Shown here: one piece after another, positions 9,676-56,910 of the stretch
How positions within the stretch are numbered: the first letter of the stretch is position 1
How the letters are laid out: every line of letters begins with the position of its first letter
Assembly (NCBI GenBank): GCA_951406725.2
Contig: OX597817.1
Coordinates: forward strand, 103,044,001 to 103,108,000
Origin: Octopus vulgaris
Lineage: Eukaryota
DNA: 64,000 nt
Direction: 5' to 3'
Notes under the pieces: model-generated
Told to the model about the DNA's origin: nothing
What the model saw: only the letters and a program-made list of their open reading frames with translations
Databases searched by the model: none
Translations under genes and position numbers: made by a program

Positions 9676-9970
9676 CTACAAAATAAAAAGAAATATGCAT
9701 AAATTTTTTTAAACAAAACTATTTTTATGTAATTAAAGATGTATACAGATATTAATATAAATTTAGAAATAGGTGTCTTTGGCTGAGTAAACAAAAGAAA
9801 TATATATGATACTGAACTAGATTACATGTAAATTTTAGAGATAATTTTTACAACTTTACAAGCAAAACCACATTTATTAATCAGCATGTTGGATGTTTTA
9901 GCTAAGCTAGGCATGGTTGTGTAGATGAGAGGATTGCTTCCCAACTGTGCAGTTTTAGATTCAGTCCCAC

Positions 9971-10311
9971 AGTACAGAATCTCAGGCAAGTGTTTTTTCA
10001 CTACAGCTCCAAGCTGGTGAAAGCCTTGTAAATGGATATGCAAAGTACACTTGGGATATAATATATATTGTTACCATCATTCATAGACATGCACCAATCA
10101 AATTGGTTGCTTGTGTCAAGATTGTTTGAATCTCCTTGCCAGTACAGAATCTCAGGCAAGTGTTTTTTTCACTACAGCTCCAAGCTGGTGAAAGCCTTGT
10201 AAATGGATATGCAAAGTACACTTGGGATATAATATATATTGTTACCATCATTCATAGACATGCACCAATCAAATTGGTTGCTTGTGTCAAGATTGTTTGA
10301 ATCTCCTTGCC
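9971..10311. repeat. Near-perfect ~170 bp tandem duplication
   Basis: 9971-10140 is repeated at 10141-10311; the only difference seen is one extra T in a T-run. Confidence 0.95.
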
Positions 10312-10834
10312 AGTATCTCAGAAATTACTGAAGCTAGGAATTAAAATGTTTTAGCAGTGATTAATACACAAAAAAATAATGTGTTCCCTTCAAAATGTTG
10401 CCTTTTTGTTGTGGAGTGAACTGACACCTCCTCTCATGAATGTCAGTGGACTAGACGAGTCTATAAATAGATGAGCCAGTAGACAGTTGAGATCAAACTG
10501 TGAGGGCATTAGTCTCATTGATTCTGCATTGGAGTATCGGATTGTTACTGTGAGAACAGTTATAAGATAACCAACTCTTGTTACATTGCTTATTGTTATA
10601 CGGTTATATTTGGTACTGTGATATATTATCTATCACACACCATACATCACCACTGACAATATAACACTTTTTAAGAAAGCTATTTAGATATTAAGTGCAT
10701 GTCCCAGCAGTATCAATTTGGTATACAAAATTAGTTACACAAGAAATTAAATGCACACAGGTATATAGAAACTTTTTCATATAATCTTATATATAACAGT
10801 TAAAACTACCAAAGACATATAAATACTGACAACC

Positions 10835-11016
10835 ACATAAGCGCAGCTGTTTGGTAAGCTTGCTTCCCAATCACATGGTATCAGGTTCAGTCCAACTACA
10901 TGACACCTTGGGGCAAGTCTTCTCATATAGCCTCAGGCTGATCAAAGCCCTGTGAGTGGATCTGAGAGACAGAAACTGCAAGAAGCCTGTCATATGTATA
11001 TATGTGTGTGTGTGTG

Positions 11017-11054
<38 letters not shown>

Positions 11055-11281
11055 CATACGTCTTTGTGTCTGAGTTTGTCCCACCACCACTGCCATTTGA
11101 CAATTGGTGTTGATGTCTTTACATCTCCATAACTTAGTGGTTTGGCAAAGAGGCTGATAGAACAAGTACCAGGTTTCAAAAAAAAAAAACAAAAAAAAAA
11201 GAAAAGTACTGGGTCAGTTCACTCAACCGAAATGCTTCAAGGTGGTGACTCAGCATGGTCACAGTCTAATGACTGAAACTT
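10835..11281 (+). mobile_element. SINE family A, near full length
   Basis: Head GGTAAGCTTGCTTCCCAA..GGTTCAGTCC, core CCTTGGGGCAAGTC, (TA)n, and tail AATGACTGAAAC. Confidence 0.8.
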
Positions 11282-11289
11282 GTATGTAT

Positions 11290-11337
<48 letters not shown>

Positions 11338-11715
11338 CTTTTAATTGTTGGGATATAGCTTTCAGAAGTCAATGATATTGACCTCAGTACTCTGGTGTTC
11401 ATTTTTCTACCTTCTAAGGGACAAAACCAAGTCAATCTTGCCTTGTTTAATACTGCAATCATTTCTTCTGATTACATAAAATGCAGTCATATCTACCAGA
11501 ACTCTACTTGTTTTATAAACAATGTAGAATGTAAATTATCTTTGATACAAATTTTTAATTACAAAATTCTTTGTATCCATACTCCCACTTGTACTTGGGC
11601 CATCTGCTTTAGTTTCTGTTAACATTTCAACAACACATTAACACTAGTGATAATTCAAAAACACACACACATTTATATATGATGTTGATAATGATATATA
11701 TGTTAAAGATATTAC

Positions 11716-11848
11716 CTGAATCAGGTAACTCTCCATAAGCTCTTAAATTTCTAGCTTCATCTGGTGTGTATTTAAGAATAACATCTGCTTTTGCATCTTG
11801 ATATTCCCGTAAACCCAATAATATAATATCTCCAGCATTTATCCACAC
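11716..11848 (-). CDS. EIF1A: eIF1A coding exon 4 (133 nt; [44 protein letters not shown])
   Basis: Canonical eIF1A sequence; ttttgtag acceptor, phase-1 gtaat donor. Confidence 0.97.
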
Positions 11849-12379
11849 CTACAAAAGGTTAAATAAAAAGAAATACAGTAATTTTTAAAGAAAATTTCTT
11901 GTAAATATTCAATAAACCTTGATGTAAAATTTTTATTTAGAAAGAAGAATGAGTTAAAGATTAAAAAAAAAAACATCTTTGGACATTTAGATGCAATGTC
12001 GAAAGGACTCTACCATTAATCAACATTGGACCAAGTCAAAATCAGCAAGCAGCACCTACATTCCCTTAATTGATTACAATAATAGAGAACCTGACTGGTA
12101 ATAATTTTATCAAGACTGAAAAGACAAAAAGCAAAGCCAAGACCAATGGGATTTGAACTGAGATGTTGAGAGCTGTATCAAATACAGCAAAGCATTTTGT
12201 CCAATGATGTAATTATTCCGCTGACCCTAGTCAATTTTTATTTCATAGACTGGGATACTGTTGTAGCAAAATTGAAAACTGAGAGAAAAATTCCAATACA
12301 GCAGACATCAGAAAGTTTGTTAAAGACTGAAAAACACCAATACTTGGCTTCTCTGGAGTGGAGTGACACATCAGCAAAA

Positions 12380-12850
12380 TATATGAAACTTTATATTATT
12401 TTCTTGTGTAGCCACTTTCCATTTGTTTTTCAAGCTTTTCAGCACCATGTAACAAAACTGACTCTGTGGAGACAAACAACCTAATTTTCAATTTGCATGC
12501 CATCTTAGAACTCCAGAACGTTATATGGAGAGCTCATTTAATCAATGACCAGCTTTATCAAGATCTACCCAAAGTGACAGAAGATTCAGCAAAGAATGAG
12601 AACTGCTGGTCATGTGTCAGGCATCAAAAAGAATCTGTCTCAACTGAGACCAGTTGACACGCAGATTCTAGGGTGCAGTCAGTTGAAGGAAAAATCATTA
12701 GGAGAAGAAAACGCCTAACCCACGTGGATAACTTGCTTCATGGCAGTGCAATGGCAAATGATGACAAATTAAGAACATGCATGCGGGACCATGATGGATA
12801 GTATGCTCAACTGAAATCACTGAAGCATCCAAATGGACAACCAAACTAAC
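12380..12850 (+). mobile_element. Decayed RTE-clade LINE ORF2 C-terminus
   Basis: WRAHLINDQLYQDLPKVTE...AGHxxRH-like motif (frameshifted), typical of the RTE C-terminal region. Confidence 0.55.
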
Positions 12851-13064
12851 TCACATACTTAATTACATCTGATATGTAATGCTCAAAGCATTTAATATTT
12901 TTACAATTTCATGCAGACTAAATAAACCTTAAATCACTGGCTAGTTGAACAACATTACAAGAACAAAAAGTTACTAGCGTATTTACAATCTCTATTTGTG
13001 AAACTAAATTTTAATCCTGTTGAATATAAATAAAAAGAACAAAAATAAAGTTTTTGAAACTTAC

Positions 13065-13168
13065 TTTTTTTCTCAATTTTCCTCTGATGTGACACAAACG
13101 CCGGTTTCCATCAAAGCAAATGGCTTCTAATCGACCATTTCCAAGCATTTTGGCAACTTGTGCATATT
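13065..13168 (-). CDS. EIF1A: eIF1A coding exon 3 (104 nt; (E)[34 protein letters not shown])
   Basis: OB-fold signature; tttttag acceptor, gtaagt donor. Confidence 0.97.
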
Positions 13169-14048
13169 CTAAAAAAATTTTTTTTTAAATCCAATTGCTT
13201 TACTTAAAACCACATATATGCAGGAAAAACATGGATACATAACAGCTAAAATAATAATTGGAACTTAGGTACTTTATAATTAACTTGGATCAATTTCTCA
13301 AGCATGATAACTGGATATCAATGAAAGACTGCTACACTCAGATTTGTGGTTGATTTGGGGAAAAACAAGTTTAACACAGCAATGAGAGAAATTTTTTAAA
13401 CTGACTACAATTAAGAACATTTTTTTTACGTTTTATAGCTCTTCAATCAAATTCCTTCCTCTTCATAAACAATCATATCACTGAAATCTCAAACCAACAA
13501 GATAATGCATGATTAATTCAAAACAATGTGATTAAATAAACATTGCATTCAACATAATCTGAATGCTAAAAGGTTAATTTTTACTTAATCAACTAATCTA
13601 TTTCTGGTCAAGAAACAAATACTCTAGTCTCAATAAAGATAAGAGGAATTTATTTCTAATTTACATCTTTTTATTTCTGAAGCCAAAGTACCACATCTAA
13701 AGGTTATTTTCAAATTCTCACTCACTCACTCACTCTATCTCTCTCTCCCCGTGAGAGAGAGAGAGGGGGGGGAGGGGGGGTAATTTAAAATGAATGGTGC
13801 AAAAAACAAAACATACCTGTAAGTGTTGTAATGAATACATTGCAAAGATACGAGTGCAACATGAAAGGTTAACTCTTCAAGTTTCTAATGACAGTCACAA
13901 GCGAGATTATCAGTGTTGCCAAAGAAACTTGGAGAGTTAACCTTACATGTTACATCTGTAGTTTTGCAATATATTCATTACAAAACTCACAAGTTTTCTT
14001 TTTGTACAATTTTATTTGAATTACCCAGTGTGTGTATCTATCTATCTA

Positions 14049-14083
<35 letters not shown>

Positions 14084-14136
14084 ACATACATATATATATA
14101 TATATATGTATACATACATATGCATACATACATACA

Positions 14137-16284
14137 CAGGCATAACTCAGCTTAAGTCATTTTGATTTAAGTCTTCTTAATTATATGTTGGTTTTCAAAA
14201 ATAATACATGGAAAAATAAAAATCAAGTTAAGTCATTTTACTTGACTTTACATCTGTCCGCCACAAATATCGGACTCGTAAAATCACTAGAAAACCGTTA
14301 AAAACACAAAATCATGTTACTATACAATAAGTAAGAATAAAAGCATATACAATCATATTAAAATACATACAATAAATGTTAAGACACACACCATAAAGTA
14401 GTGTGGCTTAGTGAACGAAATCATGAAATCAGCTGTGTTGTCATTTCTCAGCCTTTCAGAGCTCATATTGCACTGTAATTCCATATCTACTGTTAGGTGT
14501 CGTTGTCACTCGTGATTCCCACAATTGTTTTGAATTCAAATTTGTTTACATCTGTTTATCAGCTACTACCTCATTCTCATTCACTTGAGACTATTTTTTG
14601 CCCCCTGGCTCCTAAGAAAATCTGTAGTGAAACTGCTAAGTGTCATGCTATAACACTGGAAGATAAATTGGCTATGATAAAATACCATGAAAAAGGTGAA
14701 AAAGTGGTGGCAATTACACAATTTTTTGGGATGAGTCAGACAACTATATTGACAATTGTACATAATAAGGACAAGATTTTAGCACATATCAGATCTGAAG
14801 CCCCATTGATGAAGAATACTGTCATCAATAAGAGGCAAAATCTTTGAAGAAATGGAAAGTCTTCTTTCTCTTTTGATTGTTAGGTTGAATCTTTGAGGAC
14901 CTGAAGGAAAAATATCCAGGTGAGAAAAGATGTAGAGTTCAAGGCAAGTCAAAGATGGTTCATGAGATTTAAGGAGCAAAGAAGTTACCACTCCGTTAAA
15001 AAGCAAGGTGAAAGTGCATCAGCTGACGAACAAGCAGCAGCAGAATTTCCTAATGCATTAAAGAAAATCATCAAAGAAAACAGGTTTCTTCCCAAATAGA
15101 TTTTTAACATAGACAAAACTGGATTGGAAAAAATTGCCAGACAATTCATTCATTTCCAAGGAGAAAACTATTCCAGGCTACAAGGTCTCAAAAGAACATG
15201 TTACCATTGTGCTGGAGATTTTAAGTTAAAGCCATTGATTGTGTATCATGCACACAACCCTCGTGCCCTGAAGAACATAACCACGGCATCTCGCCCTGTT
15301 TTACGGATGGCTAATTCAAAAGCAAGGGTTACTGTTTTTGTTTTCGACAATTGGTTCTTCAATCATTTTATCCCAACAGCAGAGAAGTACTGTAAGGAGA
15401 AGGGGATTCCTTTTATTGCCTTACTTATCTTAGATAATGCTCCTAGCCACCTGCAGAACATCAAAGATTTTGACCCCAACATTACTGTTGTATACCTCCC
15501 GCCGAACATGACGTCTTTTCTGCAACCAATGGATCAGGGAATAATTGCTATCTTCAAGTGTTGAAGCGTACACTGTGGCAAGTAATAGCTGCAACTGATC
15601 TTGATGATACAATATCTAAAAGGCTAAACAGAACATAGCAGCAGCATAGAATGATGTACAGAGCACAGCTATGAATGGTGTATGGAAGAAGCTATGCCTG
15701 CAATTCATGAATGATTTTAAGAGGTTTGATAATGTTGCCATCAACAAAACGTTAGTGACTACAAGCAAAGAACTGGAAATGGATTTGGGGGAGGAAGATT
15801 TCAGATTTATTTGAAAAAGGCAAGCAGCTCCTGACTAATGAGGATTTGAAAGAGCTTCACGAGCAGCAAAATAAAGAAGAGGAAGTCAAAACTGAGCCAC
15901 GTCACTTTACCATTAAATATCAAAAAAGGTCTTTCTATGTTCAAGGATATGGATCCAAATGCTCAATGCTTTTTCCAAGATTATAGGGGCTTGTCCGGAA
16001 ACTTTTGCTCCTTTGTATTTGTAAATTTAGATTACTTTCATTTTTTTTTTTACTGTACTGTATTAAAAATAAAAATTATTTGTTTGTAAGCTTAAAATAG
16101 GTTTTTATTAACCATGTATTATTGAATATGCGTTTATAAATAAGGTACAGAAATGGGAATGGTTTATTATCAGTTTAGTCTAAAGTCAAGTAGATTCAGC
16201 CTAGACTAGCCTAGAGACAAGTTAATTCAACCTAAGTTGTGTCTCCTGGAACCAATTAACAATGTAGGGTGAGGTATGCTTCTG
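14137..16284 (+). mobile_element. Tigger/pogo-family DNA transposon, decayed full length
   Basis: Ends CAGGCATAACTC... / ...GAGGTATGCTTCTG resemble Tigger TIRs; HTH-psq (ITLEDKLAMIK), CENP-B HTH and DDE_1 fragments (LLILDNAPSH, LPPNMTSFLQPMDQGII) with frameshifts and stops. Confidence 0.9.
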
Positions 16285-16310
16285 TGTGTATGTGTATGTA
16301 TATGTGTGTG

Positions 16311-16347
<37 letters not shown>

Positions 16348-17395
16348 TATGTAGCTGTTATAATTCACAGCCATATAACTCTCTGTATGCCATATTTAAA
16401 ATAAACTTTTCAACTCATATACATATTTCTCACTTATCCTCATATGCAGCTAGTCAAATATCAAAGCACACAAAGTATTTCACATGTAAGCAAGTATACA
16501 TTTCTGTGTACATAATATCTAAGATTCCAGTATTACTGTCCTCTGCTAAAATTCACCAAATCTTCACATACCACATAAAATGTTTAATTACATCTTGAAA
16601 ATAATTTGTGGTTATAACCCCAAAATTAATTTGTAGGAATGATAAATATACTTTAAGTATAATAATTCCACAGTGTTAAATATGCTTTCACACAGAGAAA
16701 ATATTTGTTAATCATGCAGAATAGATAAGTAGTATTACCTTTGTGTAAACCAATTTTTGTTTATAGAACAATTTATTTTGACAACAGTGAAATATAACTT
16801 AAAATTTCATTGGTACCAGCCAGTTGGTAGGCAATGATCATGTTGGAAAATACTAATTATCCAGTGAAGTCTAGAAACAGTTGGCCACCTTATCTTGAAG
16901 CAGATTTATTTATTTTCTATATTACTCTACTTCAAGACATGTCTTGAATGGATAAAATATCAATTACATACTGGTAGGGACAAACACACAAATAGTCATT
17001 CAGTTAAATATTCGCCTTCCCATTATCACTTGCCAATAGGATATCATTTCAAAATGTTGCATTTCAAACCACACCTAGTCCCACCAGCATGGATTAGTTT
17101 AACATTATTTTAATTTTTTACATCAATGGCCAAAGATAAACACTGGTTATACACCCAGAATCCCAAGCAAGATGGTTCTTACAATCTATAATGGTGTAGG
17201 AAAGAAAGGGATTAAAATGGTAGTAATATTAAAAATATGTTTACTATTGAAATACATTTGTGAAAAAAACAAACAACTAAATTATTTGAATAGTGAAACA
17301 TTTTCACAGCTATCTTTAGCATTATTTTCTTTTTCCTAATAAAAAGAGTATTTAAGAAGTAATGGAGCTCTGAAATACATAGATAAATTGCTTAC

Positions 17396-17479
17396 CTTGA
17401 CCATCTTCTTTGAAAACAAGTTCTCTTTTCACATCCTCACTTTCGTTTTTACCTCGCCTTCTGTTTTTACCTCCCTTAC
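17396..17479 (-). CDS. EIF1A: eIF1A coding exon 2 (84 nt; (G)[27 protein letters not shown])
   Basis: Basic N-terminal tail; tttttttag acceptor, gtaagc donor; phase 1-1. Confidence 0.97.
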
Positions 17480-27510: not shown

Positions 27511-27526
27511 CTTTATTCTTTGGCAT
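27511..27526 (-). CDS. EIF1A: eIF1A coding exon 1 (16 nt; MPKNK+G)
   Basis: ATG CCA AAG AAT AAA G|gtaag; joined exons (16+84+104+133+89+6 = 432 nt) give a 143-aa eIF1A. Confidence 0.95.
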
Positions 27527-27594
27527 ATTAAAGCTTCGTAATTTAACTCAATAAAATAGATAAGGTGTCAAATAGATGGAATGATGGGAAATAT

Positions 27595-27640
27595 CTATAG
27601 AGGAAGTGACCTTCTAATTTTTCAAGTTCCGGTTCTTACT
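27595..27640 (-). promoter_or_regulatory. Putative eIF1A core promoter with ETS-like sites
   Basis: AGGAAGTGAC (27601) and TTCCGGTT (27627) lie 75-110 bp upstream of the ATG in a locally CpG-richer region. Confidence 0.5.
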
Positions 27641-40900: not shown

Positions 40901-43900
40901 ATGTAGTGTTCTGTGCAAAGACATGCCAACTACCAACAAGCAGTGATACAGGATGTATAACTAAGGTAATTAAATATGTGATTTTGTTTGCGTATTTGCT
41001 TGATTATTTGTAAGAGCTTCATATAGGCATTTATATTACCAACCAAACATATGAACACATTTCTCATGCACTTCAAGACCAGTTTTGAAACCTATATTTA
41101 GAAAGCTGAACACTATACAGGTATTCTTTTGAAAAAGCAAACATTTTGGGCTGTGGCCAATACCTGCAGAATTGAGGCATGTTTGACCTAATTACAGGTT
41201 TAAAAATTGGTCTGAAAATGTTGATCTATAACTTCAGTATATACAGTAGTTATCTGGCCTGCATACAGTGTAGTCAACTTATATTTGTTTCATCATAAAG
41301 AGTATGATATTGCATTCTAGAGTTGGTAAAACTAGTTACATTGGAAGTTTATTCATTTGACTTGAAATTAAAAAAAAAAAATTCACTATTTACTTAAGAT
41401 AATTCAACAGCTGCTTCACTTATAGACAACTGATTCAATCTTGATATTTTGCTCTTACTATGCAAATAAGTTTGATATAGATAAAACAATTCTGTCACAT
41501 ATATTTCCATCCAACCCATGCTAGCATGGAAAACGGATGTTAAACGATGATGATATGACCAATAATATTTGGAGCAGTTCTTTTTATTTTTTATATTGAG
41601 CCAAAACCATCTCTTAATTGAAGATGATGGGATGTGATTTGAAGGAGATTTGGTCACTACTTTTAACATGCTGAGTGGTGCACTCTTTGTTGGCTTGGTA
41701 AACCTGATTAGTGTGAGACAACAGATTCCTTAGGGAAAGATTTCACAGTCAAACAAAAGGATCATTTAAATAACGAAGTAGAATAAAAACTTTCTCAATA
41801 GTTTATGCTGGCATTTAGAACAAAATATATCAACAGCACATTAAGGAATTTGTAAGTTTTTATTTTCTGATTTACACTGAATATTGCCCTAAACATAGTT
41901 AAAACAAGAACCAGGTTAACATCTCTTCCAATGAGATAAGTATGATTTTTATAATGAGTGATACAATTACAACAATGAAGCACATATGCTCCATTCACAG
42001 TTAATTGCTATACTTACATTGTTTGCAAGCAAGAATGATTCAAAACATTTTCTTGAATTATGAAGGATGACCAGAAGCTGCATGGAGTAAATTTAGAAAA
42101 ATACTATCATGGTATAAATATTTACAAAAGACATGATCTGTGATGTAAAAAAAAAAAAATTAAGTTATATGTTTTGTTGAATATATTTTAACAGATATGT
42201 ATTTTGTGTAATATTTTAAGCTGAAAAACACTGACTTTGCTTCAAAATTTAGCAGCATCTTTGAAATCTTAAAATAAAAAAAGTATGAATCAAGTTTTAC
42301 ATGATAAATGAAATTTTTTACAGATTATCTTTAAAATGTATAAATTTATTCAGCAGCTTTCAATCATCAACCAACACTTGAATATCTATTATGAAATCTC
42401 CAACTGGGATTATGATGGTCCTATTTTGACAGCTTAGCTTTCATTAGAGCCTCATAAAATCAATTCTACTGTTTGTTAATCCTACATATGTCTAATGAGT
42501 ATCATGGTGCCTGTTGTATTGCCAATCAATATTCTAAGCATCGTAAGGTTTCTGGAGTTCTGTGAAGAAAATCAATTCAGTGTCTGTAATACAAACCTCT
42601 GAGAGCAAGCCAAAAAACAGGTTTTTCACCAATTAGGTGAGAATGAGATCTTGATTAATATTCTTCTGATTAAGGGTTTGACAATTATGAACTAATTTTT
42701 TTTCTTTTTCTTATCTGGAAAGGAATGTGCCTCAAATCAGAATAATGCTAGATGAGTTCAAACTAAAACAAGATAAGCACAGCTTTTTATATAAAGAAAG
42801 ACAGCTGAATGGACAGAAAATTACTCATAGTTGGATACTGCAAAGTATGAAGCTAAAATGAGTGATATGTTTAGGTCTGTATTGTGAGGAATCCTGATTA
42901 GGATGGAAAAAAAAATTTGTTCCCAGAGACAAAGAAAAGAAAGTGGCATGCAAGTGTCACCATGCAAAATTGCTGAAAAAGGAATATAAATGGAATATGG
43001 TCAGCAACAGAGATCAGTTGAGCAATTTATGACATAAGGAGAACTTAAGATCTTCCATGATAGTTACTGAAACTTTCAAAATATGTTTGTGTCACAGTAG
43101 TAATTTACTTTGAGAATGAAGGCTTTGCAACCAAGCAATCAACTCTATCTCAGGCTAGAGTTAAAAGACTGACAGGCAGCAAATTAATTATTTCATACAA
43201 GAGATCACAAAATTCCAATCATAATCAAGAGTGTAACATTTTTTGACATTCAGAAAATGTACAGGAGCACAATACTGTGTATTCAGGAAGTGTAGTGAGA
43301 TTTTAGCAGAAATTGACATCATAAAATTAATAGTGTAAGTGAAAAGAACATAAAGAAAATGACAGTATGAGCAGCTACGATGCACTGAGGACTGTGAATA
43401 GTTTAAATTGTTTGCTGGAAGTTATAGATAAGTTCTGCTAACTAGATGATATAATTAGAGCTACATGTAGAGTCAATGGCAGCATGGTGATTGGAATTTG
43501 GAAGTAGAGAGATTAGAGAAGGCATATCTGTTGGTAATAAAGGTTTCTACTCACTGTATGAGAGCAAGGCTATATCAAGCTTGTATAAAAGATGTATAGC
43601 AGTGAAAGCAGAGAAACTACAGTGACGAGAGAGAAATGATTGATTGTAATCTAGTGGAAGTACAAAAAACATGAAGTGAGAAAATAACTGCATATCAAAG
43701 CATAGGTCAATACTAATGTAACTGACTGATGCTTGCTGAGTGAAAGAGTGAAGTGATGGTGGAGAATATTCATTTTAGAATCAAACCAAGGAAGACTTGA
43801 GAATTAGTTAGGCTACACCTGAGGAGCCTCACAGAAATGAGACAAATAGAAAAATATATTGCAAACCCATTTAACCCATGCAACATGAAAAAAAAAATAT

Positions 43901-44847
43901 ATATTAAAATAAATAATTAAAAAGCAAAACAAAACAATGAGAACAGGGTACTTATTTCTCCTTTTGTAAACCAGAAAACCTGAAACATCACAAAAGCATC
44001 CTGCAAGCTGTTTTGAGTCAAACACAAGTAAACAGTAAGGAACCAGTAAGATTTTGTTTCACAAGCAGAATTCTTTCAATGTATGAAATCCCGAATCTGT
44101 TTCACATATCGCATCTGAATGAAGGTGAAGACATGTAATTGATGAAATTTAAAAGACAGCTTAATATAAATAATATAGCCAATATTTTTACAATGATATT
44201 GTTGTGGTTGTTTAGCTCAGGTCAGCCTAAACTGAGCAAATAGATCTGTGATCAAAAGCATTCTAATTGTGACCATCCCATCTTTTTTTTTTACTTCAGA
44301 TGTAGTGTGTATTTAATGTGCTTTTTGCTTTTAAGAAGGTATAGTATGCAATTTGATGGAAATTTGGCTGTTTTTTCTAGTAATTCAAGTAGCTAGAAAA
44401 CAGCTGCCTTCATAATAACTGACAAGCTCCTTTGCTCAGTATAAGCCTCTGAATATTCACTGAGATTGAAGATTTGATTCAAAGTTAGTGGGTTTCTTTT
44501 TAAACTTAAAACTTCTTTGAACATTTTCCTATGATTCAGTATTTTTCAGATTTTCAAGTGTTAATATTGTATTTAGTATCTATAATTAGTGAGGTTTTCC
44601 TCTTCAACTGAAAAATATATTTCTATTATAAAAAAACATACTATCACAGAAAAAGTCATTAAGAACTCTAAAGACATTCATGAACTAATCTAACAATTAC
44701 AATACACTTAGAAAAAATTTTTTTACATAAACAAAATCTAATAATTTGGTAAGAAGGTAATTTGAAAAAAACATAACTTCTTTTCCTTTTTAAACATATT
44801 TATGTTTAGTTTCATTCTGCATAAAAAAAAAAAAAAAAATCATATAG

Positions 44848-45932
44848 TCAAGTTACTTTGAAATAGTTCCCTTGAGATTCCACACATAATTCCATATGTT
44901 TAAACCAGCTTTCAAAGCATTCAATCCAATCTTGAGGGGTTAGCAACATAGTAGCTTGAATAAATGCACTAAGAGCATCTCCAGGCTTGTTAAATTTAAT
45001 TCCAATAAGATCTTTTTTCACTTTAGGATATACAAAATAATCCCAAGGAGATAAATCAGGACTGTGAGCAGGATGTGTAATTAATTGAATGCTATTCTCA
45101 GCAAGACAGTCCATAGTCACTGCAGCAGTAAGAACATTTATATTACTATGATGGAGAAGAATACCTTGGAGTCCAGAATCTTTTCTTACTTCTTTGATCT
45201 TTTCAAATAATTCAGGTAAACATTTTGTTAAATACCAACTAGGATTAACTTTGGATTTGTCTTTGAGTAAAATAGTAGCAAGGTTACCAGATTTACTAAA
45301 AAAATTTACAATTGTTTTTTTTTGTACATTTGGTGGATGTTTCCATTTAAGATAGTAATCTTCATCGAGGAAAGTCCATACTGTAGATGGCTTTTTAGAT
45401 TCAGTATATTGATAAAGTTGGAATTCAACTCCAAGAACAATATTTTCAATTTTCTGATGTGCTCCATTTTGAAACTTTTTTAGCATAAACTCACACCATT
45501 CCATTCTGGCCAACTTCTGCTCTTCACTTAAGATTTGAGGAACCCAGCACATATTTAGTTTGCGAACATATAAATAATCATGAAGGATTGATCGAACACT
45601 TTCTGATCCAATATTCAATACACTTTCTAACTCTTTATAAGTCACTCTAGAATCTTCTTTTAATAACAGTTTAACTGCTTCAATGTTTTGAGGTGTGACA
45701 GTTGTGTTAAGAATTTCGCTATCCGCACATTCATTAGTTTGTTCAAATTCTTTAAACCAAAATTCAACAGTACAATATGGGGGGCTTTGGTCTTGAAATA
45801 CTTCATGAAGTACCTCTTGGGATTCAGCAACAGTTTTTCCCTCACAGTAATGTAAGAATATCATGTCTCGAAAGTCTCGATTTTGCAGTTTCATAGAAAA
45901 CACTTGCCTCTGCAGCCTAATTTTATCAAGTT
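44848..45932 (-). CDS. Mariner (DD34D)-derived, catalytically dead transposase-like protein; main coding exon of a putative domesticated gene
   Basis: Stop-free 361 codons collinear with a full mariner transposase (two HTHs, WVPQIL, HPAHSPDLSPWD, C-terminal WF..M..CV...G.YF); triad reads V/S/34/D; T-rich ...ttttccag acceptor at 45933-45934. Confidence 0.85.
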
Positions 45933-46273
45933 CTGGAAAAAAAAAAGACATCACAAAAGAACTCTTAAAATGTGTCTTTAAAAAATTCTTAAAATAAATA
46001 TTTATATACATATAATCGAGAACAAAACAATACAGAAAAATAATTCTTACTTTAAGAATAAATAGTGAAGCAGTAGAAATTAAAATAGAGAAAATATTTT
46101 ACACATTGAGGAAGAAATGTAACTTTTTGAGTGGGGCCCCTTCCATGAAGAAAATGTTTCTTTTCATCAGAATTCCATACATTTTAATAATATAAAGTCT
46201 CTAACAAATCTTGTGCTTCACAAATTTTTTACTAATTTATGGAATTTAATATATATGCATACATATCCATGTT

Positions 46274-46314
<41 letters not shown>

Positions 46315-46341
46315 AATAATTACTGTGAAGCATTGTGTAGA

Positions 46342-46674
46342 ATATATTGTATAAAAGATTGTGGGTAAGGCCAAAACAATGCAAAGTAAATCATAAGAAA
46401 CAAATATGTGAATTAATGTAGACTTATCATGTATTCAATATTTTGGGGTTATGACCAAAATTTTCAAGAAATTGACAAATGTTGCTGATGTGCGTGAGCG
46501 CTCACACACACACATATTGGCAACATTTGTCAATTTCCTGAAAATGGGGTCATAACCCCGAAATACTGAATATAAGGTAAGTCTACTTTAATTCACATAT
46601 TAGTTTTCTTGTGATTTATCTAGCATTTACTTCGCATTGTTTTGGCCTTACCCACAATCTTTTATACAATATAT
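46342..46674. repeat. Fold-back inverted repeat (arms 46342-46491 / 46511-46674)
   Basis: TATTGTATAAAAGATTGTGGGTAAGGCCAAAACAATGC vs GCATTGTTTTGGCCTTACCCACAATCTTTTATACAATA. Confidence 0.92.
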
Positions 46675-46870
46675 ATATATATGCACATCTATATACTCAT
46701 ACTAACCACTACACAAAAGCAACATCACAACACTGATTGTCCAAATCACAAGACAAGATTTAACTGAAGTACCTTAGATTACATATACCAGTAACCTTTC
46801 AACAGGGAGCCTAGTTAACAGAGCAGTAATGTATGGTATTGTATATTTTAATGAAGAAAATGGAAAAATG

Positions 46871-46901
<31 letters not shown>

Positions 46902-46989
46902 ACATTTTATGTGTGTGTGTATGGTGTACTGTTCTGTGATAGTAAGACCACAAAAAAAGTACTCTACCTGGTAAGAGATAAATATTATT

Positions 46990-48720
46990 TAATAAACAAT
47001 GTTTTTATGTGCTACTATTAGTTTCATGTGATGAGAACATGCCAGACAGTATTTTTTTTAACACATCTGGTGTCCTAGCACTGGGACAATAGGATGAAAG
47101 AAAAAGTGAGAAACGGCGAGAAAGAAGTTAGAAAGTTGAAAAATTGGAAAACAAAGAAGCAAAAGAGAGGGGGATCAGAGTACTCTTCCCTTTGACTGTA
47201 AAATATAAGTTTGATAAGATAGCAGCTTAGAGTCTGTGGTACACCTGTTCAAACCAGAAAGGGCGGCACTTTCCAATTCATCAACAGGAACTTAGCCATA
47301 TGCTTACAACTACTGAAAATTTTGGATCTAGAATTCAATAGTGTGTTAGTGTTTTTAGATCCTAGTTCTTTCAGCTATGCATAGCTTACATTTTTTGATC
47401 TGTTAACATATGGCGTGGATTTTTCAACTTCAAACCCCATATGTTGCTAGCTTTACTTTTTTTTATGTCCTTGTGTCAGAAGGAAGATATGTGATTAGCA
47501 TAGTGATTTCTGAATTTGCCTTCAGTCTGATATAGCTCTTCTTAAAGATTGTGTTATGATATTGCATTGCTGTAACTTCTGCCTCATATATGACAGATTT
47601 AATCATATATCTCTGGTTGAGTGGACAGGTTCCTGGGTCTCGAAAGTTACAACTGGGAGAGGGATCTTGGTGTTGTTCTCATGTAATGATGCTTTTCATA
47701 TTGGGGCAGCAGCTATATAATTTCACTGTATGCCTGTTAAATATTTTCCCATACCTGTGATTTTCTGGAAAATGTTTTGTCTAGGAGAGACAAGAATCTT
47801 TTACCTGTGTTAGTTTTTACATTAATGGAGGGGGGGATTTTCTTAGGTCATATTATTATCATTCCTATTAATATTAGATGGGTTATTAATTCATCCTTAA
47901 AGTCACTGTTAGTTAGGGCACTGTTGTAGTAGGTGGCTGCCTTCTTGAAAATTTCTTTAGAGGAACAAAGGTTAGAAATTCTGTTACTAATGTTAGCTAT
48001 TAGATTTTAAGATTCTACAGGGTGACAAGGCTATGTATATAAAAAAGTTTCTCATTGGGCATATGATAAGGTTTATAAGAGGAGTTCAGGACTAATGAAA
48101 CATCTAAAAAATCAACTTTAGACTGATTAGTAGCAACTGTGATTTTAAGGCCTAATTGACTGAAGGTTGAAGTAAGTTGACTCCTAAATTTATCTAGGGT
48201 GTGATCATTACAGCCATGGGAAATACCCAATTTGTCATCTCAGTATAGACCAACATCATTAGATCTCAATGTGTTTAATACAGAGACCCACAAGATCACA
48301 GACATCAGCACTATTACATAATTCCATTGATACATCAAACAATTCATCATTATCTAACATTTTTATCCATGCTGAGCTCTTACTAAACAGTAGTGTTTTC
48401 CTCACATGATGATAAAGCTTAGGTTTACAGGGTCTATATCAACATGATTTAGCAAACTTGATGGCTTTATCAAGTAGCAATCTTGGTATGGAGGGATAAC
48501 ACTATGTCAAACTGAGTAAAACTAGCCCTATGCTTATTCTTAATGTTCTTGAACCAAACTATTACAGTAAAACTTGGTCTCTTTAATTTTATTTTTAATG
48601 TTTCTTAGTATTTTTTTTTAACTACTAGCCCAATTTTAGTTCCTGCTGGGTTTAACAATCTACATGGCATACTCTCATCACATGAAACTAATAATAGTAG
48701 CATATAAAAACATATATTGT
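46990..48720 (-). mobile_element. Decayed 5'-truncated Penelope-like element (RT + GIY-YIG) with inverted pLTR copy
   Basis: LGLKITV...VDFLDVSL..YKPYHMPN...YIHS RT motif; Cys-rich linker and SYI..EG.F..HYANH endonuclease remnant; 48660-48715 is the inverse of 46995-47045. Confidence 0.8.
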
Positions 48721-48729
48721 CTTTATTAA

Positions 48730-48948
48730 CCCTTTTGATACCAACCCACCTGAAACCGCTTCTGGCTCTGTAGTACAAATGTCTTGTTTTCAAAAGTTCT
48801 GAATTAAAATCTTCCATCAAACCTTAGTCACAATTTATGTTCTTAAAACTATCTTAATGATTAAGTTATTTTACTAAATTCTTTGTTATATTTAAAATTA
48901 ATTGAAAGAAACACAGAGCATCTCAACAGAAATATGGTAACAAAAGGG
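48730..48948. mobile_element. TTAA-flanked piggyBac-type MITE
   Basis: TTAA|CCCTTTTG...CAAAAGGG|TTAA; a second copy lies in inverted orientation at 59653-59874. Confidence 0.85.
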
Positions 48949-48955
48949 TTAAATA

Positions 48956-48990
<35 letters not shown>

Positions 48991-50465
48991 CACACACACA
49001 CAGAAATAATTAAGATTCAGCTGTATTAGTTACTTAAGTTGAAGCACCAAGTCAGTCCGGTATTATCTGCGCAGCTCAAAGTATTCACACACACACACAC
49101 ATATATATTAGTTCAAATGTACAGAAAACAAAAAAAGACCGGTGAGGGAACAACAAGCTGGTGTATTAGTTTGATGCTGTGTAATTAAAACCAGTTTAAC
49201 TTCAAACATAAGTTAAAAATCATTTAATGCTGTGTTTATATGTATGAAAAGTAGAAATATAACAATACTTTTTTCACAGAATAAGTGTTCTTATATTACA
49301 GCTTAGCTGAAATTATATTGGTATTTTAAAGGTGAGTTTGGCATATATAATTTACTTAAACATGTATAACAAACATAATAAAGATGGTTGAGAAGAAGGG
49401 AAAACAAAGAGTCACATGCTGCTTCGAGTCTTTTGTATAAAAGAAGATATAGTTATTTTTGAGTTTTGCAGCTATAGTCCTGGGTTGACCACAGCTTTCT
49501 TGAGTGGATTTGGTAGTTGGAAACTGAAAGAGGAATGTGTGTGTTTGACATCATGTGTAAATGAGTGTCACAGTGATACAATCAGTGTCACTCTTTTCCA
49601 ATATTCTGTGAGAACATGTCTGACCATGAGGAAACATTACCTTGCTTGGAAATGAGTGAAGATTGGTGACAAAATAGGCATCCAGCAATAGAAAATCTGT
49701 CTCAATAAATTGAGAATAGTTGTGTGAAAAAGTGCCACACCCTAGTGTTTGAGGGAACCTGTGGAAGAGATAGACCCAGGAAGACCTGTGATGAGGTGGT
49801 GAAGTATGACCTTCGAACACTAGGCCTCACTGAGGCAATGACTAGTGACTGAGCCTAGTCACTAGCCATTGCCTCGGTGAGCCTTACCCATAAGATTAGT
49901 TGGGAACCGAAGCAACTGAACAAAGCCAGCAAGAAGATATCCCTGGCAAGTGAAAGCAGTATAAGAGGTTGTGGTATATGCTACAAAATGGGTGGCGTTA
50001 GGAAGGATATCCAGTCCTAGAAACTATGCTACAACAGATACTGGAGTGTGATGCAATCCTTGGATCCACCAGAGTTTATTAAATTGTCCACCCAATGCCA
50101 GCATGGAACATGGATGTTAAAATGATGATAGTTTACATGTGTGTGTGTGTGTGCACACACACATAGATCCTTATATACAAACATACATATATATATAAAT
50201 AAGTATATGCATACATAGTGGTCAAGCATCCATCACTGACAAGACCAAGGAAGGTTAAAATCATGTGATCTAAACAAGAGTGCATTTTGCACCAACAGCC
50301 AATAAGACATATACATGTTTAAAGACACATTCATATACATATGTAGATGTATGCATGTGCACCTGAATGCTGTGTATGCTCATGTGCATGTATGTTTCCT
50401 TGCATCCTCATACAGAATGTGTGTGGTTACATGCTCATATAACCCTGCATTCATGCTTGTATATA

Positions 50466-53057
50466 TCATCATCATCATCATCGTTTAACGTCCGCTTTCC
50501 ATGCTAGCATGGGTTGGACGGTTCAACTGGGGTCTGGGGAGCCCGAAGGCTGCACCAGGCCAGTCAGATCTGGCAGTGTTTCTACAGCTGGATGCCCTTC
50601 CTAACGCCAACCACTCCAAGAGTGTAGTGGGTGATTTTATGTGCCACCGACACAGGTGCCAGACGAGGCTGGCGAACGGCCATAATCGGATGGTGTTTGT
50701 TACGTGCCCACAGCACGGAGGCCAGTCGATGTGGTACTGGCTACGGCCACGTTCGGATGGTTTTCTTATGTGCCACCGGCACTGGTACCACAAAGATACA
50801 AATTCCATTGATGTTCATCTATTTTGATTTGGTTTGATTTTCACTTGCCTCAGCAGGTCTTCACAAGTGTCCCAAGAAGGAAGGTATGCACAGGTGGACT
50901 GGCTACGTCACAGGTAGGGGCCATGGGTTATAGCCTCACTAGTCTTGCGGGGTCTTCTCACGCACAGCATACTTCCATAGGTCTCGGTCTCTAGTCATTT
51001 CCTTGGTGAGACCTAAAGTTCGAAGGTCGTGCTTCACCACCTCATCCCAGGTTTTCCTGGGTCTACCTCTTCCACAGGTTCCCTCAACTGCTAGGGTGTA
51101 GCACTTTTGCACACAACTAACTTCAGCCATTCTTGTCACACGACCATACCAGCGCAGACGTCTCTCTTGCACACCACAACTGATGCTTCTTAGGTTCAAC
51201 TTTTCTCTCAAGGTACTTACACTCTGTCGATTATGAACACTGACATTACACATCCATCGGAGCATACTGGCTTCATTTCTTGCGAGCTTACGCATATCCT
51301 CAACAGTCACGGCCCATGTTTCACTACCATGTAGCATGGCTGTATGTACACATGCATCATACAGTCTGCCTTCTACTCTGAGCGAGAGGCCTTTTGTCAC
51401 CAGCAGGGGTAAGAGCTCTCTAAACTTTGCCCAGGCTATTCTTACTCTAGCAGTTACACTTTCAGCACACCCACCCCTACTACTGACTTGGTCACCTAGG
51501 TAGCGGAAGCTATCAACTACTTCTAGTTTGTCTCCCTGGAACGTGGTAGAAGTTGGTCTCTGCACATTTCCAGTGTTTATTGCTCCTGAGCATCTGCCAC
51601 AGACAAAAACTATTTTCCTAGTTAGCCTTCCTTTGACATTGCTGCACCTCTTATGTGTCCATAGCTTACACTTGGTGTACCTTATAGAGTTTCTACCTAC
51701 ACCTTTTTTACAGATCGAGCAGGGCCATCTACCTGAAGTCGTTTGTGATTGGTCCACCTTCCTACTTATTAGGACTTTGGTTTTGGCTAGGTTGATTCTA
51801 AGGCCCTTCGATTCTAATCCTTGTTTCCACACCTGAAACTTCTCCAGTTCTGATAGTGACTCAGCAATTAGAGCAAGGTCATCAGCATAGAGGAGCTCCC
51901 AGGGGCATCTTGTCTTGAATTCCTCCGTTATTGCCTGGAGGACTATGATAAATAGGAGGGGACTAAGGACTAAACCTTGGTGGACCCCAACCTCTACCCG
52001 GAATTCTTCACTGTACTCGTTGCCAACCCTCACCTTACTAGCAGCGTCTCTGTACATGGCTCGCACAGCTCTCACTAACCATTCATCTATCCCTAGTTTC
52101 CTCATTGACCACCAGATAAGGGATCGGGGGACCATGTCAAAGGCTTTCTCCATGTCAACAAAAGCCAGGTACAGGGGCTTATCTTTGGCTAGGTATTTCT
52201 CCTGCAGCTGTCTTACCAGGAATATAGCATCAGTAGTACTTTTCCCTGGCACGAACCCAAACTGCATCTCATCTAAGCTAACTCTCTCTCTAATTAATTG
52301 GGCTATAACCCTCTCCGTAACCTTCATTACCTGATCCAGCAACTTGATACCCCTGTAGTTATTTGTATCTAGAGTGTCACCTTTACCTTTGTAGCAGTTG
52401 ACTATTATGCTGCTACACCAGTCATTGGGTATGACTCCTTCGTGTATCACCTGGTTAACTATACGGGTGACTAGGCTATAGCCAACACTACCAGATATTT
52501 TGAGCATCTCTGCAGTAATTCCTGATGGGCCTGGGGCTTTCCCTGTTTTCATGCTTGTAATTACCTTAACTACTAAGGAACTGTTAACTCGGATTGCTGG
52601 TCCCTCTGTTGGGTCGACATTCGGCAGACTCTCTTTATCCCATTCATTTTCCTCATTCAGCAACCTTTCATAGTGGCGTCTCCAAGCCTCTCTCTTTGCA
52701 TCCTCATTTAGCGCAAGTGAACTGTTATCCTTGCGAACACATTTCTCTCCTATCACGTCACGATTCTCTCTCACACACTGTCTTGCAACACGAAATACCT
52801 CAAGTCTTTCATCCTCACGGCTCAGAACATTGGCAAATTTTTTCTTATCTGCTTCCCCTCTGGCTAGATAGACCTGTCTCCTAGCTTCCCTTCTGGCAGT
52901 CTGATACACTTCCCTGCTACCACCATTCTTCCAAGCCTGTTTCTTTGGTCTAATAGCCCTGTCAACAATATTGTTCCACCACCACGTTATTTTGGGTCTT
53001 AAGGGGACTTTGCACCAGCCACAGATCTGGTCAGCGGCTTTCAGCAGGTTGTCCCTA
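50466..53057 (-). mobile_element. Young 5'-truncated RTE-clade LINE with intact RT ORF (50939-52909), 3' UTR and (GAT)n tail
   Basis: 656-aa ORF: KAPGPSG, NYRGIKLL, QFGFVPG, FVDMEKAFD, GVHQG, LYADD, HGSETW, RRLRWYG, RGRPRKTW; the endonuclease domain is absent. Confidence 0.95.
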
Positions 53058-53939
53058 CAAAAGGCATGTGTGTGTTTACATGGCTGAGGTGAGCAGAAAT
53101 ATATATATATATATGTGAACCACTAAGCAAAGTCAATTTGTATGAAGCTCCCACCAACTTCACCAATTACTCCCTTAACTGAACTATGTCAACCTTTCAT
53201 CCCAACAAGATGTTCCTCCACACCAAACACCAGAGCAGAATAAGTACTTCAATTACAAGTCCACTACTTTCAAATGCAAAATACACTGCAACATTAATTT
53301 CACCAAAACCTAATTACAATCTCCTAAACACTCCTGTTTCCTTCCTCAAACCATTTTGGTTTTACTGTCATAACTTTCTCCTCTTCACCTCAGTTACAAA
53401 ACCTTGAGTGAATGAATATACCATGGGAAGGTGAGGGTTATCTAATCTTACAGCAAACAAAGCAACTCTAATACCTATCCTGTCCGGTCTATAAAATGGT
53501 CTGTAAAGATAATAGTACACTGTCTTTCCTATCAATTATTTAAAATACATATACAATTTTCATTTAATAATTTAATGTCCACTTTTCCATGCTTGTATGC
53601 TTGTATGGGTCAGACAGAATTTGAAGAGACATCTTTTTTACCACCAGATGCCATTCCTGCCACCAACTCTGACCTGTTTTCAAACAAGGTAATACTTCTC
53701 ATGGTCAAAAAAAAAAAAAAAAAAATTCATAGAAGACTGGAAACAAAATAAGATTGCTTTTATGAAGATGATGCTCATTTACAACAATTATGTGATGTCA
53801 AGACAAAAGGTACACATGCACACAAAGGATGAACTACAAAATCTACCCACAAGGTTTGGATTGGCTTGAGGTTATAATAGAAGACTCTTGCCCACGGTAC
53901 TATGCAGCTGAACTGAATACAAAACCACATGGTGTGTGA

Positions 53940-54290
53940 GTGTGTCTAAGTGGATTGAACATGTGGAGGAGGGAGACCCAGAATAAAGTACTGAAGGCTG
54001 ATCTCAAGACACTGAGCCTTACAAAGGAGATGACTAAGAACTGAGATACATGGCACATTGCTGTACTCAAAGAAGTACACAGCAGAATTGATACTGGTGT
54101 TGATGCCACATAAAAAGCACCCAATATGCTCTGTGGAGTGGTTAGTGTTAGGAAGGGCATCCAGTTGCAGAAACCATACCAGAACAGACAATGGAGCCTG
54201 GTATGGCCCTTGGTCTTACCAGCTCCAATGAAATCATCCAACCCATGTCAGTATGGAAAATGAATATTAAATGAGGATGATGATGATGAT
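53940..54290 (+). mobile_element. RTE 3' end fragment (similar plus-strand pieces at ~80-385, 49700-50130 and 63020-63520)
   Basis: GTTAGGAAGGGCATCCAG...CCAACCCATG..AGCATGGAAAA...(GAT)n shared with the RTE 3' UTR. Confidence 0.8.
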
Positions 54291-54677
54291 ATATAAAACA
54301 TCATCATGTAACATCTATCTTCACGACTGGCATGTATTGGATGGTTTGACAGAATACAATGGGTGAAAGGACTGCACAGTGCCTCAGTCTTTGCTTTGGT
54401 ATATTTTCTATTGCACTATGTCCTTTTATTGGAAACAAAAATGTGAGATCTGCAAGACTATGAACCCCTTTGACTGAATGGGATACAGTAGAGAGGGAGA
54501 TACAGTATGAAGGTAGGGGCCAAAACACATCCTCTAGAGGTGAAGATAATTCATAGAAATCAAGAATTTTTTTTTATGGTATATGATATATCTATCTGTA
54601 CTCTGCTGTTATGTGTGCTCATTTTACAAATATATTTAATATAATTTAATTTGGCGAAAGGAAACAATGACGTTACC

Positions 54678-54776
54678 AGCGAAGGTAAAGAATATGCACA
54701 CCCGGAGTTTGGGGTTAGGACTAGAGTTTAGAGTTACACCGAAAATGGATGGTGTGCGTATTCTTTACCTCTGCCG
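54678..54776. mobile_element. Tiny TIR element with an internal telomere-like repeat
   Basis: AGGTAAAGAATATGCACACC / GGTGTGCGTATTCTTTACCT flank GGGGTTAGGACTAGAGTTTAGAGTTA. Confidence 0.6.
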
Positions 54777-56690
54777 ACGATACCTACTAACATTTAAACT
54801 TGAATATAAATAGGGAGGGAATTTGATTAGCAACTCATCAGAACTAATTGGTTGAAACCACAGCTATTGTTTTTTGTTAATCTCATAAACCTATCGGTGC
54901 TGAATTGTTACACACTAAAATTTAATGGGTAAGACTGAGTTCCTATCGGAAAATAAATTGAATAGAAACCTCAACAAGATATTGTTTTCTTTGCTTTACT
55001 AAAATAATGAAATAATTAAAGATATTTCAAAAACAAATATAATTTTTAAGCTTATAATATCTATACATTCAAGTTTGCTTAACTTTGGTGCTTCGCATCA
55101 TAGATACTTTTAAATGTTTTTACTGCTAAATTGAAATTTTAGCATTATGTCGACTCGTTACCTGAGGTCAGTCGTATTATAACGTTGGTTTAATGATCTC
55201 ACAAGTTACAGACGACCATTCCGGTGGATTACACGACCTTTTTGTGTCTATAGTCTTGCTACAGGCAAACCAGCGAGTGCTTAATTGGTCAGCCTACGTA
55301 ACCAGAGAGGTGAAAAAAAAATCACCACTGTAAACAACAGGCGTTAAGCACTCCGTGACTGGCGAAACGTTTCGTTAGCTTACATAGCTGGACTCAAATT
55401 CTCTTTTTCTCGCACACCCCCGAGAAAATAAACGGTATAAATATGAAGTATTCAGTGAAATTCCAATAGGTTATAAATACTTACCTACAGCAACCCTTAG
55501 CAGTCAAAAAACATTTAGCAGTTATCAAGCAGCTTGTACCAAGACACATTTAAATGATTAAAATCTTCACTTAGATAGGGAACAGGTGTTCCCATAACGA
55601 ATAAGGCGTTTATCTAAGCTTACATCACAAAAAACTATTTTGACCGGCAAATAATTTTGTAAAACAATCCGAGAAAATTAACAGTGAATTGAGTCGGCAA
55701 AAGAGTAATAGTAAGTAATTCATCGGGTTAGATTGGAAAATCGAGGAATATAGAAAAACCATAGGTGTTGGTATAGAATTATGAATCAAAATTAAGATAC
55801 TCATTTTATTGTTAATCAAAAAATAAGCATAACAATTAAATTTCCCGATTAACGATAATATTAATCCAATAAATAGCATGACAAATATCAGTGAGAAAAG
55901 GCATGTACAAGCAATGAAATATTTTTACCGATTATTTGGTAATTTACAAGAATCAATTACGTCAGATTTCTTATAAAAATGAGTTTTAGAATGCAAAATA
56001 AGCTTACAGTTAAAAATAATAAGAATAGACAGTTTAATCAAAAAACAAACAACCAATTTTGAATATTTCGTTAGAAAAATACAGTATTTTCGCAAGATGC
56101 GCAAAGGAATGATGTATGGCTACACGATGGTATATTGAACATTTTCACGGAGCAAACAGCTTAAGTTATTGAAAATATGTTTGGTTATAGTACATACTAA
56201 AAGAAGAAATTACAATAATTACTTCTGATTTCTTCAAGTATAAGATATAGGATTATTGGAATTGTTAGTTCGATAAAAAGCATGGTTGTTAATTATTTTA
56301 CAGAACATTAGCAAGAGTACGTTCCCAGACTAGCAATTAGGCCATTCCAGAAAAAAAAAAAAGAAAAAGCATAGACAAGAACAGTTATTTTAATTATTAA
56401 AACATTAAACATATGTATGAACTTATAATTAAAACTAGCTAAAAAAAAATGTACCCTTTTTAAAGTCGTGTATTGCAAAAGTATTATTATTAAAGACAGA
56501 GAATTAATTCACAGGCTGCCTATGCAGCACTGTTCTATTTTTTCGACGGGAAGATTTGTAGTACAAAGCAAACATACAACACATAAATCCACGAGGAAAT
56601 GCACGGCAAGCAGAAGGCAAATGTAGCAGCCAAAATCACCGAACATGTTACATTCTTACAGGCAACTGTTACATGCTAACTGTACGTTAC

Positions 56691-56706
56691 CTTTCATCTT
56701 GGGCAT
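56691..56706 (-). CDS. Putative 16-nt first coding exon (MPKMK+G), paralogous to eIF1A exon 1
   Basis: taatATGCCCAAGATGAAAG|gtaa vs eIF1A taatATGCCAAAGAATAAAG|gtaa (21/24 identical); phase 1 matches the acceptors at 45933 and 17480. Confidence 0.65.
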
Positions 56707-56859
56707 ATTATAACACCTCGCTCCAAACTATGGAGCTGAGACATGAACAAGCAAACAACCCTCCAGTGCAATAGATGAATTATGGGAGATATTGTAGATT
56801 TATTTATTTCTTTTTAATTTCACTTTTCTTCCCCTTTTTCAGATGGTTTCTTGTGACAT

Positions 56860-56910
56860 TACCTGGTTCGTGTGTAGTGGCATTTTAAGGCGGAAGTTAC
56901 GTATTAGAAT
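56860..56910 (-). promoter_or_regulatory. Putative promoter with ETS-like site GCGGAAGTTAC
   Basis: Resembles the GGAAGTGAC site upstream of eIF1A exon 1, in the same orientation, within a CpG-richer, TE-poor stretch. Confidence 0.4.

Follow-up and report, generated by a model that had tools for sequence, protein, structure and literature searches.

An octopod gene pairing an eIF1A-like first exon with a catalytically eroded mariner exon, and its possible partnership with a SMARCE1-borne transposase domain

The stretch of DNA analysed here (the window) comprises 64,000 nt of Octopus vulgaris contig OX597817.1 (positions 103,044,001 to 103,108,000, assembly GCA_951406725.2) and carries on its minus strand a gene in which a first exon closely resembling that of the neighbouring translation-factor gene eIF1A is spliced in frame to an exon encoding a mariner transposase. 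We regard it as almost certain that this is a real gene kept by selection. Our preferred reading, to which we give about an even chance, is that this octopod gene consists of an eIF1A-derived first exon and a dead mariner exon, and that its protein is a non-cutting partner of a sister mariner domain encoded in SMARCE1 (BAF57).

The in-frame splice, the 10,758-bp intron, the 366-aa product and the 13 open codons ahead of the transposase's own start, all proposed in the initial annotation, were recomputed and hold. Translation begins at the ATG at 56706 (minus), intron 1 extends from 56690 to 45933 with GT..AG borders, and the open codons (E6-S18) precede the native Met19 at 45894. The junction 56691→45932, on which the proposal depended, was found in contigs of all four sequencing runs (four studies, two organism labels), with contig depths across the exons of 19.6, 23.2, 5.75 and 33.6 and a depth of 0-1.5 in most repeat-free bins of intron 1; among the junctions listed, no alternative first exon joined 45932. 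Single contigs started at 56881 or 56864, crossed the junction and extended beyond 43500; they fix neither the transcription start site nor the expression level, and the true start of exon 1 may lie further 5' of 56881. The product is identical to O. vulgaris CAI9721526.1, annotated as a hypothetical protein. The idea of an undescribed system survived in part: the protein was already in databases, while a literature search, with most subscription papers and supplements outside its scope, returned no description of the gene or of the SMARCE1-mariner fusion presented below. An annotated 413-aa isoform uses a donor just ahead of the stop codon and extra exons at 42077 and about 40060 (minus), and the contig alignment ended at 43500, short of these exons. 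The features of the gene and of its likely donor are as follows.

56691..56881, minus: exon 1, 5' untranslated region (UTR) plus 16 coding nt (MPKMK + G), phase-1 donor at 56690; from translation and from contigs X6 (56691-56881) and X2 (56691-56864), which continue into exon 2
56687..56710, minus: start context, 16-nt coding exon and donor, very probably homologous to eIF1A exon 1 (21/24)
56770..56798, minus: 5'UTR block aligned to eIF1A 27601-27571, colinear with the ATG
56886..56902, no strand assigned: GGAAGT site just 5' of the longest contig ends
45933..56690, minus: intron 1, containing a long interspersed nuclear element (LINE) reverse transcriptase frame (50939-53122) and an inverted-repeat element (46342-46674)
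44848..45932, minus: coding part of exon 2, with the ELDK leader (E6-S18), Met19 and a full-length mariner transposase fold
45739..45879, minus: HTH_48, the first helix-turn-helix (HTH) domain, residues 24-70
45427..45429, minus: V174, where Mos1 has its first catalytic Asp (motif TGDEKW)
45145..45147, minus: S268, in place of the second catalytic Asp (HDNA)
45040..45042, minus: D303, the third catalytic Asp, kept here and replaced by E in Argonauta
41840..44847, minus: 3'UTR of about 3 kb with a presumed 3' end; contig records X6-24 and X10-9 reach about 1.66-1.69 kb beyond 43500, and an AATAAA at 41864 adjoins
27511..27601, minus: eIF1A exon 1 (MPKNK + G) and its 5'UTR block, the likely donor
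9588..17479, minus: eIF1A exons 2-5 (approximately 17479-17396, 13169-13065, 11848-11716 and 9675-9588)

Two sites of the form ATG-CCN-AAG-ANN-AAA-G/GT occur in the window, both on the minus strand, at 56706 and 27526. The gene at 27526 was identified as eIF1A, since its exon 2 begins at human eIF1A residue 7 (E 5e-9) and a PF01176 match lies at 13032-13166; the whole genome contains only two PF01176 matches, this one and another on C11. The sequence 56710-56687 is identical to 27530-27507 at 21/24 nt, on the same strand and with 29,180 nt between the two ATGs, as had been claimed, and no other 24-mer matched at 19/24 or better among the 427,232 positions compared. The degenerate start and donor pattern matched three times in 2.8 Gb, a rarity that is somewhat overstated because the pattern was built from the two sites themselves; two of the matches are the tandem pair and the third, on C13, is accompanied by neither the 5'UTR block nor further similarity. 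The 5'UTR alignment (56798-56770 with 27601-27571) matched in 26/31 columns in colinear order, and its score was reached by 0-23/2000 shuffles and 0-267/~4000 genomic controls over 12 settings, being significant in most of them and weak in some (up to 267/3996 genomic controls).

These data suggest that exon 1 derives, with high probability, from eIF1A, and that exon 1 together with part of its 5'UTR very likely goes back to an old, partial tandem duplication of that gene. The copy would cover the exon and the UTR block. A similar GGAAGT(T/G)AC site had been noted 5' of both exons, and such sites, which we take to be ETS-like, are indeed present at 56896 and 27606; relative to the respective ATG, however, they lie at about 190 and 80 nt, and relative to the UTR block at about 98 and 5 nt, and are thus not colinear. 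The proposed duplication of promoter plus exon 1 stands for the exon and UTR block; a borrowed housekeeping promoter is more conjectural, the motif being non-colinear and the upstream promoter giving no alignment. Likewise, alignment of the two intron-1 regions gave no homology (666/2000 shuffles reached the score). The alternative origin offered at the outset, a full paralogue shorn of its other exons, fits less well, as no remnants of eIF1A exons 2-5 were found in 27600-56690 or in the 27 kb upstream of exon 1, although age could have erased them. The gene has no OB-fold (PF01176) exons and by that test is not an eIF1A paralogue; with only five residues contributed by exon 1, no eIF1A function is carried over.

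The rest of the protein is of transposase origin. HTH_48 (E 6.6e-8) was the only Pfam domain found, Mos1 was matched with E 1.4e-21, and the AlphaFold2 model (pLDDT 77.6) displayed a full mariner fold whose best structural matches were Mos1 transpososomes (E 2e-21) and the SETMAR catalytic domain. Two of the three catalytic Asp residues are gone, the triad reading V174, S268, D303; the RSGRP linker is deleted, and the WVP linker and clamp loop are kept. Residues 19-72 carry a net charge of -5, compared with +7 in the SMARCE1 sister and 0 to +3 for the first HTH of eight free mariners, residues 19-130 have an isoelectric point (pI) of 4.8, and K/R positions of the recognition helix read E. Apart from MPKMK nothing of the host is fused to it, and no effector domain is attached. 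No non-simple inverted repeat flanks the open reading frame (ORF); compared with an active DD34D mariner, the gene has a broken triad, a single copy and no terminal repeats. Judging from these residues, the protein has probably lost the ability to cut, together with a large part of the surface that binds DNA.

Nonetheless, the protein is well conserved. An Argonauta hians model, GAB1597971.1, starts with MPKMKELDK and is 86-88% identical to the window protein, with 18/18 identical residues at the start, so that the 16-nt exon is conserved in a related species, as the initial annotation would have it. Identity amounts to 133/142 over residues 19-160, 33/37 in the clamp loop and 124/154 in the C-terminal part, both HTH domains being about 95% conserved. 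Octopus and Argonauta belong to different superfamilies; no date for their divergence was found in the literature searched, which was available in partial texts. Comparison of the window gene with its SMARCE1 paralogue gave dN 0.41 and dS 2.3, the latter saturated. Conservation of the N-terminal part and clamp loop and the paralogue dN/dS, beside the motif losses, indicate that selection keeps the transposase shape. No squid or cuttlefish orthologue surfaced in searches where most top matches were unnamed and clustering hides close relatives.

A genome search with the window protein returned one match at 100%, the next at 48% and 111 others at 25-29%. The 48% match (G000:C17:56097273-56098373; exon 56097271-56098376, locus L002 1499-2604) has the same phase-1 acceptor and ELDK leader as window exon 2, and its host gene is SMARCE1/BAF57 (E 4e-17). 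Upstream of it lies a SMARCE1 exon with a phase-1 end, and downstream a short last exon is predicted, so that the mariner exon is laid out as an alternative terminal exon of SMARCE1. In Argonauta, GAB1609329.1 (1243 aa) is modelled as an HMG box, an S/T/P tract and the same transposase (332/367 identical, 90%). A screen of 6736 candidates for longer fused proteins was negative, which means little because this 1243-aa fusion was itself hidden as a cluster member. The SMARCE1 copy keeps all three Asp residues, with eroded neighbours (DE to DQ, DNAxxH to DDTxxN, YSPDL to SSPDL).

The two genes formed a single clade in a quick tree of 46 rows (SH-aLRT 99), on a long stem of 0.44 that separates them from every free mariner; the closest free mariners are 36% and 41% identical. 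Both octopod copies read CW[IV]PQ, with the C in 0/20 displayed relatives, and both have lost the His after D2, which is kept in 19/20. No third member of the clade was present among the 111-150 matches scored per search, and no free element of the family was found; the 16 next-best genomic loci belong to other, decayed mariner families, at most about 31% identical at full length and containing stops. Separately, the genome harbours a mariner family of more than 100 copies (loci L003-L010 and L030-L038), in which many 354-aa frames are open and the terminal repeats, about 40 nt long, are near-perfect; it was probably active recently.

A 27-nt imperfect inverted repeat flanks only the SMARCE1 copy (L002 1383-1409 and 2712-2738), 163 nt ahead of the Met and ending 134 nt past the stop, a spacing typical of mariner ends, and the acceptor lies within this putative terminal-repeat pair. 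Its score was reached by 2/3000 shuffles and 35/5000 genomic pairs. Neither a MITE (miniature inverted-repeat transposable element) family for this mariner nor dispersed copies of the candidate repeat were found, the genome giving two matches at no more than 2 mismatches, both at SMARCE1; it could be a relic terminal repeat or a retained RNA stem able to control exon use. Its restriction to the SMARCE1 copy favours SMARCE1 as the first insertion site, and we consider it somewhat more probable than the contrary that window exon 2 is a copy of an already domesticated exon. Of the original claim that a mariner ORF was captured as a new gene, capture is upheld, and the captured sequence would be not a fresh transposase but a sister, catalytically eroded, of the exon that became domesticated within SMARCE1.

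The gene may then have arisen in the following way. A partial tandem duplication of the eIF1A 5' end would have supplied a start site for transcription, an initiation codon and a donor splice site in phase 1. The mariner would first have been captured in SMARCE1, forming an alternative last exon there, before a duplicate of this exon landed behind the eIF1A-derived one. The duplicate would have shed D1, D2 and the RSGRP linker while its first HTH turned acidic; its fold, clamp loop and WVP linker stayed in place. The resulting protein would neither cut nor bind DNA well and might pair with the SMARCE1-mariner domain, damping or positioning it.

This partnership is put forward tentatively, at somewhat less than an even chance, because the SMARCE1-borne domain is the only cognate in the genome and mariner transposases work as dimers (PMC4013102). 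In the Mos1 dimer, the WVPHEL linker and the clamp loop supply more than 70% of the interface (PMC4013102), and catalytically dead partners have a precedent in PgmL with Pgm (PMC6143343). Complex prediction for the window protein and the SMARCE1-side domain, folded without alignments, returned 0.18 and 0.20, the mark being 0.34, values that speak neither for nor against binding. More speculatively, and in our view doubtfully, one mariner could have yielded a two-part octopod chromatin module, in which a BAF57/SMARCE1 isoform, through a basic transposase domain that binds DNA, could aim SWI/SNF at new sites and the acidic, dead copy from the eIF1A-exon gene pairs with it and tunes it.

Besides the points already given for exon 1, several observations weigh against this reading. 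The run type of the junction data is recorded as 'RNA?', a guess; of the 20 runs containing the sequence, 14 were guessed to be RNA and 6 were unlabelled, none being on record as RNA. Three upstream ATGs lie in the 5'UTR (56883, 56859 and 56744, minus), the last opening a 16-codon frame that overlaps the main start out of frame, and translation of the gene may therefore be limited. The SMARCE1-mariner fusion transcript is a prediction from a single gene model, that of Argonauta; in O. bimaculoides the SMARCE1-side mariner ORF is annotated by itself (XP_014783185.1, 353 aa). Within the SMARCE1 copy, the WVP region is the part least conserved to Argonauta (23/30), which is not as predicted for a fixed shared interface. 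The tree, obtained by a quick method, takes 38 of 150-plus relatives, picked as near full length, and the shared stem of the pair could be unsampled transposon history. Finally, DNA binding would account just as well for how strongly the N-terminal half is conserved.

A different order of events, which we judge unlikely, would have one acceptor-bearing mariner family inserting independently in SMARCE1 and in eIF1A intron 1, after which a tandem duplication split the eIF1A splice forms into eIF1A and the new gene. It explains why the window copy sits at exactly the position and phase of eIF1A intron 1, and acceptors of transposase fusions mostly come from the transposon itself (8/9 cases; bioRxiv 10.1101/2020.05.07.082677). 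However, searches of the eIF1A introns for transposase remnants, and of the sequence behind the new gene for eIF1A exons 2-5, were negative; both copies have lost the His after D2 and carry C in place of R ahead of WVP, neither of which is seen in the sampled free mariners; and the matches scored contained no further member of the clade.

The conservation of both HTH domains would also suit a stand-alone DNA-binding regulator that reads old mariner ends in the manner of the transposase half of SETMAR, and DNA-binding domains dominate transposase fusions (76.5%; bioRxiv 10.1101/2020.05.07.082677). Such a role appears rather improbable for a protein with an acidic first HTH, glutamates in its recognition helix, a deleted RSGRP linker and no effector domain, and no dispersed copies of the candidate end sequence were found at up to 2 mismatches.

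Still less can be said for a dominant-negative brake that poisons dimers of mobile mariners. More than 100 genomic copies of other mariner families exist, many with open frames, and dimer-related motifs are retained in the window protein; yet the resident transposases are only about 24-28% identical to it, which makes mixed dimers unlikely, and selection persists although the cognate family has no other genomic copy among the matches scored. That exon 1 is an unrelated short exon resembling eIF1A by chance is very improbable, since, for all that it offers just 16 coding nt with three differences beside an intron and an upstream promoter that fail to align, it shares length, phase, strand and neighbourhood with eIF1A exon 1, the pattern is rare genome-wide and a second, colinear UTR block accompanies it.

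On the preferred reading, the gene resembles the host-transposase fusions SETMAR and KRABINER in that a mariner ORF was captured via an acceptor just upstream and kept by selection (bioRxiv 10.1101/2020.05.07.082677). It differs from them in that its host part amounts to five residues rather than a domain, the host giving only promoter, start and donor, and in that the donor exon is the duplicated first exon of an unrelated neighbour. Where a fusion is defined by a host domain, the Argonauta SMARCE1 model has one (the HMG box) and the window gene none. Unlike the fusions surveyed in tetrapods, among whose 106 genes 12 events of later duplication were reported, the window gene is molluscan and its first HTH is acidic (bioRxiv 10.1101/2020.05.07.082677).

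The SMARCE1 sister recalls CSB-PGBD3, where a transposase likewise forms an in-frame alternative 3' terminal exon of a SWI/SNF-related gene (PMC2268245). Here, in contrast, the transposase is a mariner and not a piggyBac, the host is a BAF subunit and not an ATPase, no MITE family accompanies it, the fusion RNA is predicted, and a separate dead paralogue exists in octopus (PMC2268245). An intact-triad domesticated transposase beside a paralogue without catalytic site is also found in PiggyMac and the Pgm-like proteins; their interaction was shown, whereas that of the octopus pair is conjectural, and the octopus pair has no sign of programmed DNA elimination, with other eroded motifs in its DDD copy (PMC6143343). 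As for Drosophila CG4570 and CG14478, both derived from Tc1/mariner elements, they are similarly single-copy, conserved and devoid of terminal repeats, but are described as keeping a DNA-binding or catalytic module, while the window protein keeps the whole fold with both activities apparently degraded (PMC13548663). In the accessible part of a survey of transposon-derived factors that includes Octopus, SMARCE1 and SETMAR are unmentioned and mariner is named once (PMC10027918); an O. maya study includes a 'SETMAR' transcript among those induced and gives no detail on it in the text available (PMC6341066).

Other features were observed around the gene. The inverted-repeat element at 46342-46674 is MITE-like, about 330 bp long and about 410 nt upstream of the acceptor, between TA runs, with arms of 50 nt at 98% and 66 nt at 85%. 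Upstream of exon 1, 57200-57990 is CpG-rich (observed/expected 1.1 near 57800), with low contig cover at 57043-57500, and possibly gives rise to a divergent transcript. Pfam matches at 50939-53122, 36026-37519, 14497-15564 and 21955-22506 correspond to LINE reverse transcriptase frames, a CENP-B/DDE_1 (pogo-type) relic and a Pif1 helicase fragment, and Rfam gave 0 matches across the window.

Taken at the strengths given above, the window would record a gene birth that can be traced to two unrelated parts, a copy of a translation-factor first exon and a tamed transposase exon, and its analysis brings to light a predicted mariner fusion with a core SWI/SNF subunit that is conserved in octopods and apparently undescribed. 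Should the two proteins interact, they would provide a lineage-specific means of retargeting and tuning chromatin remodelling in octopods.

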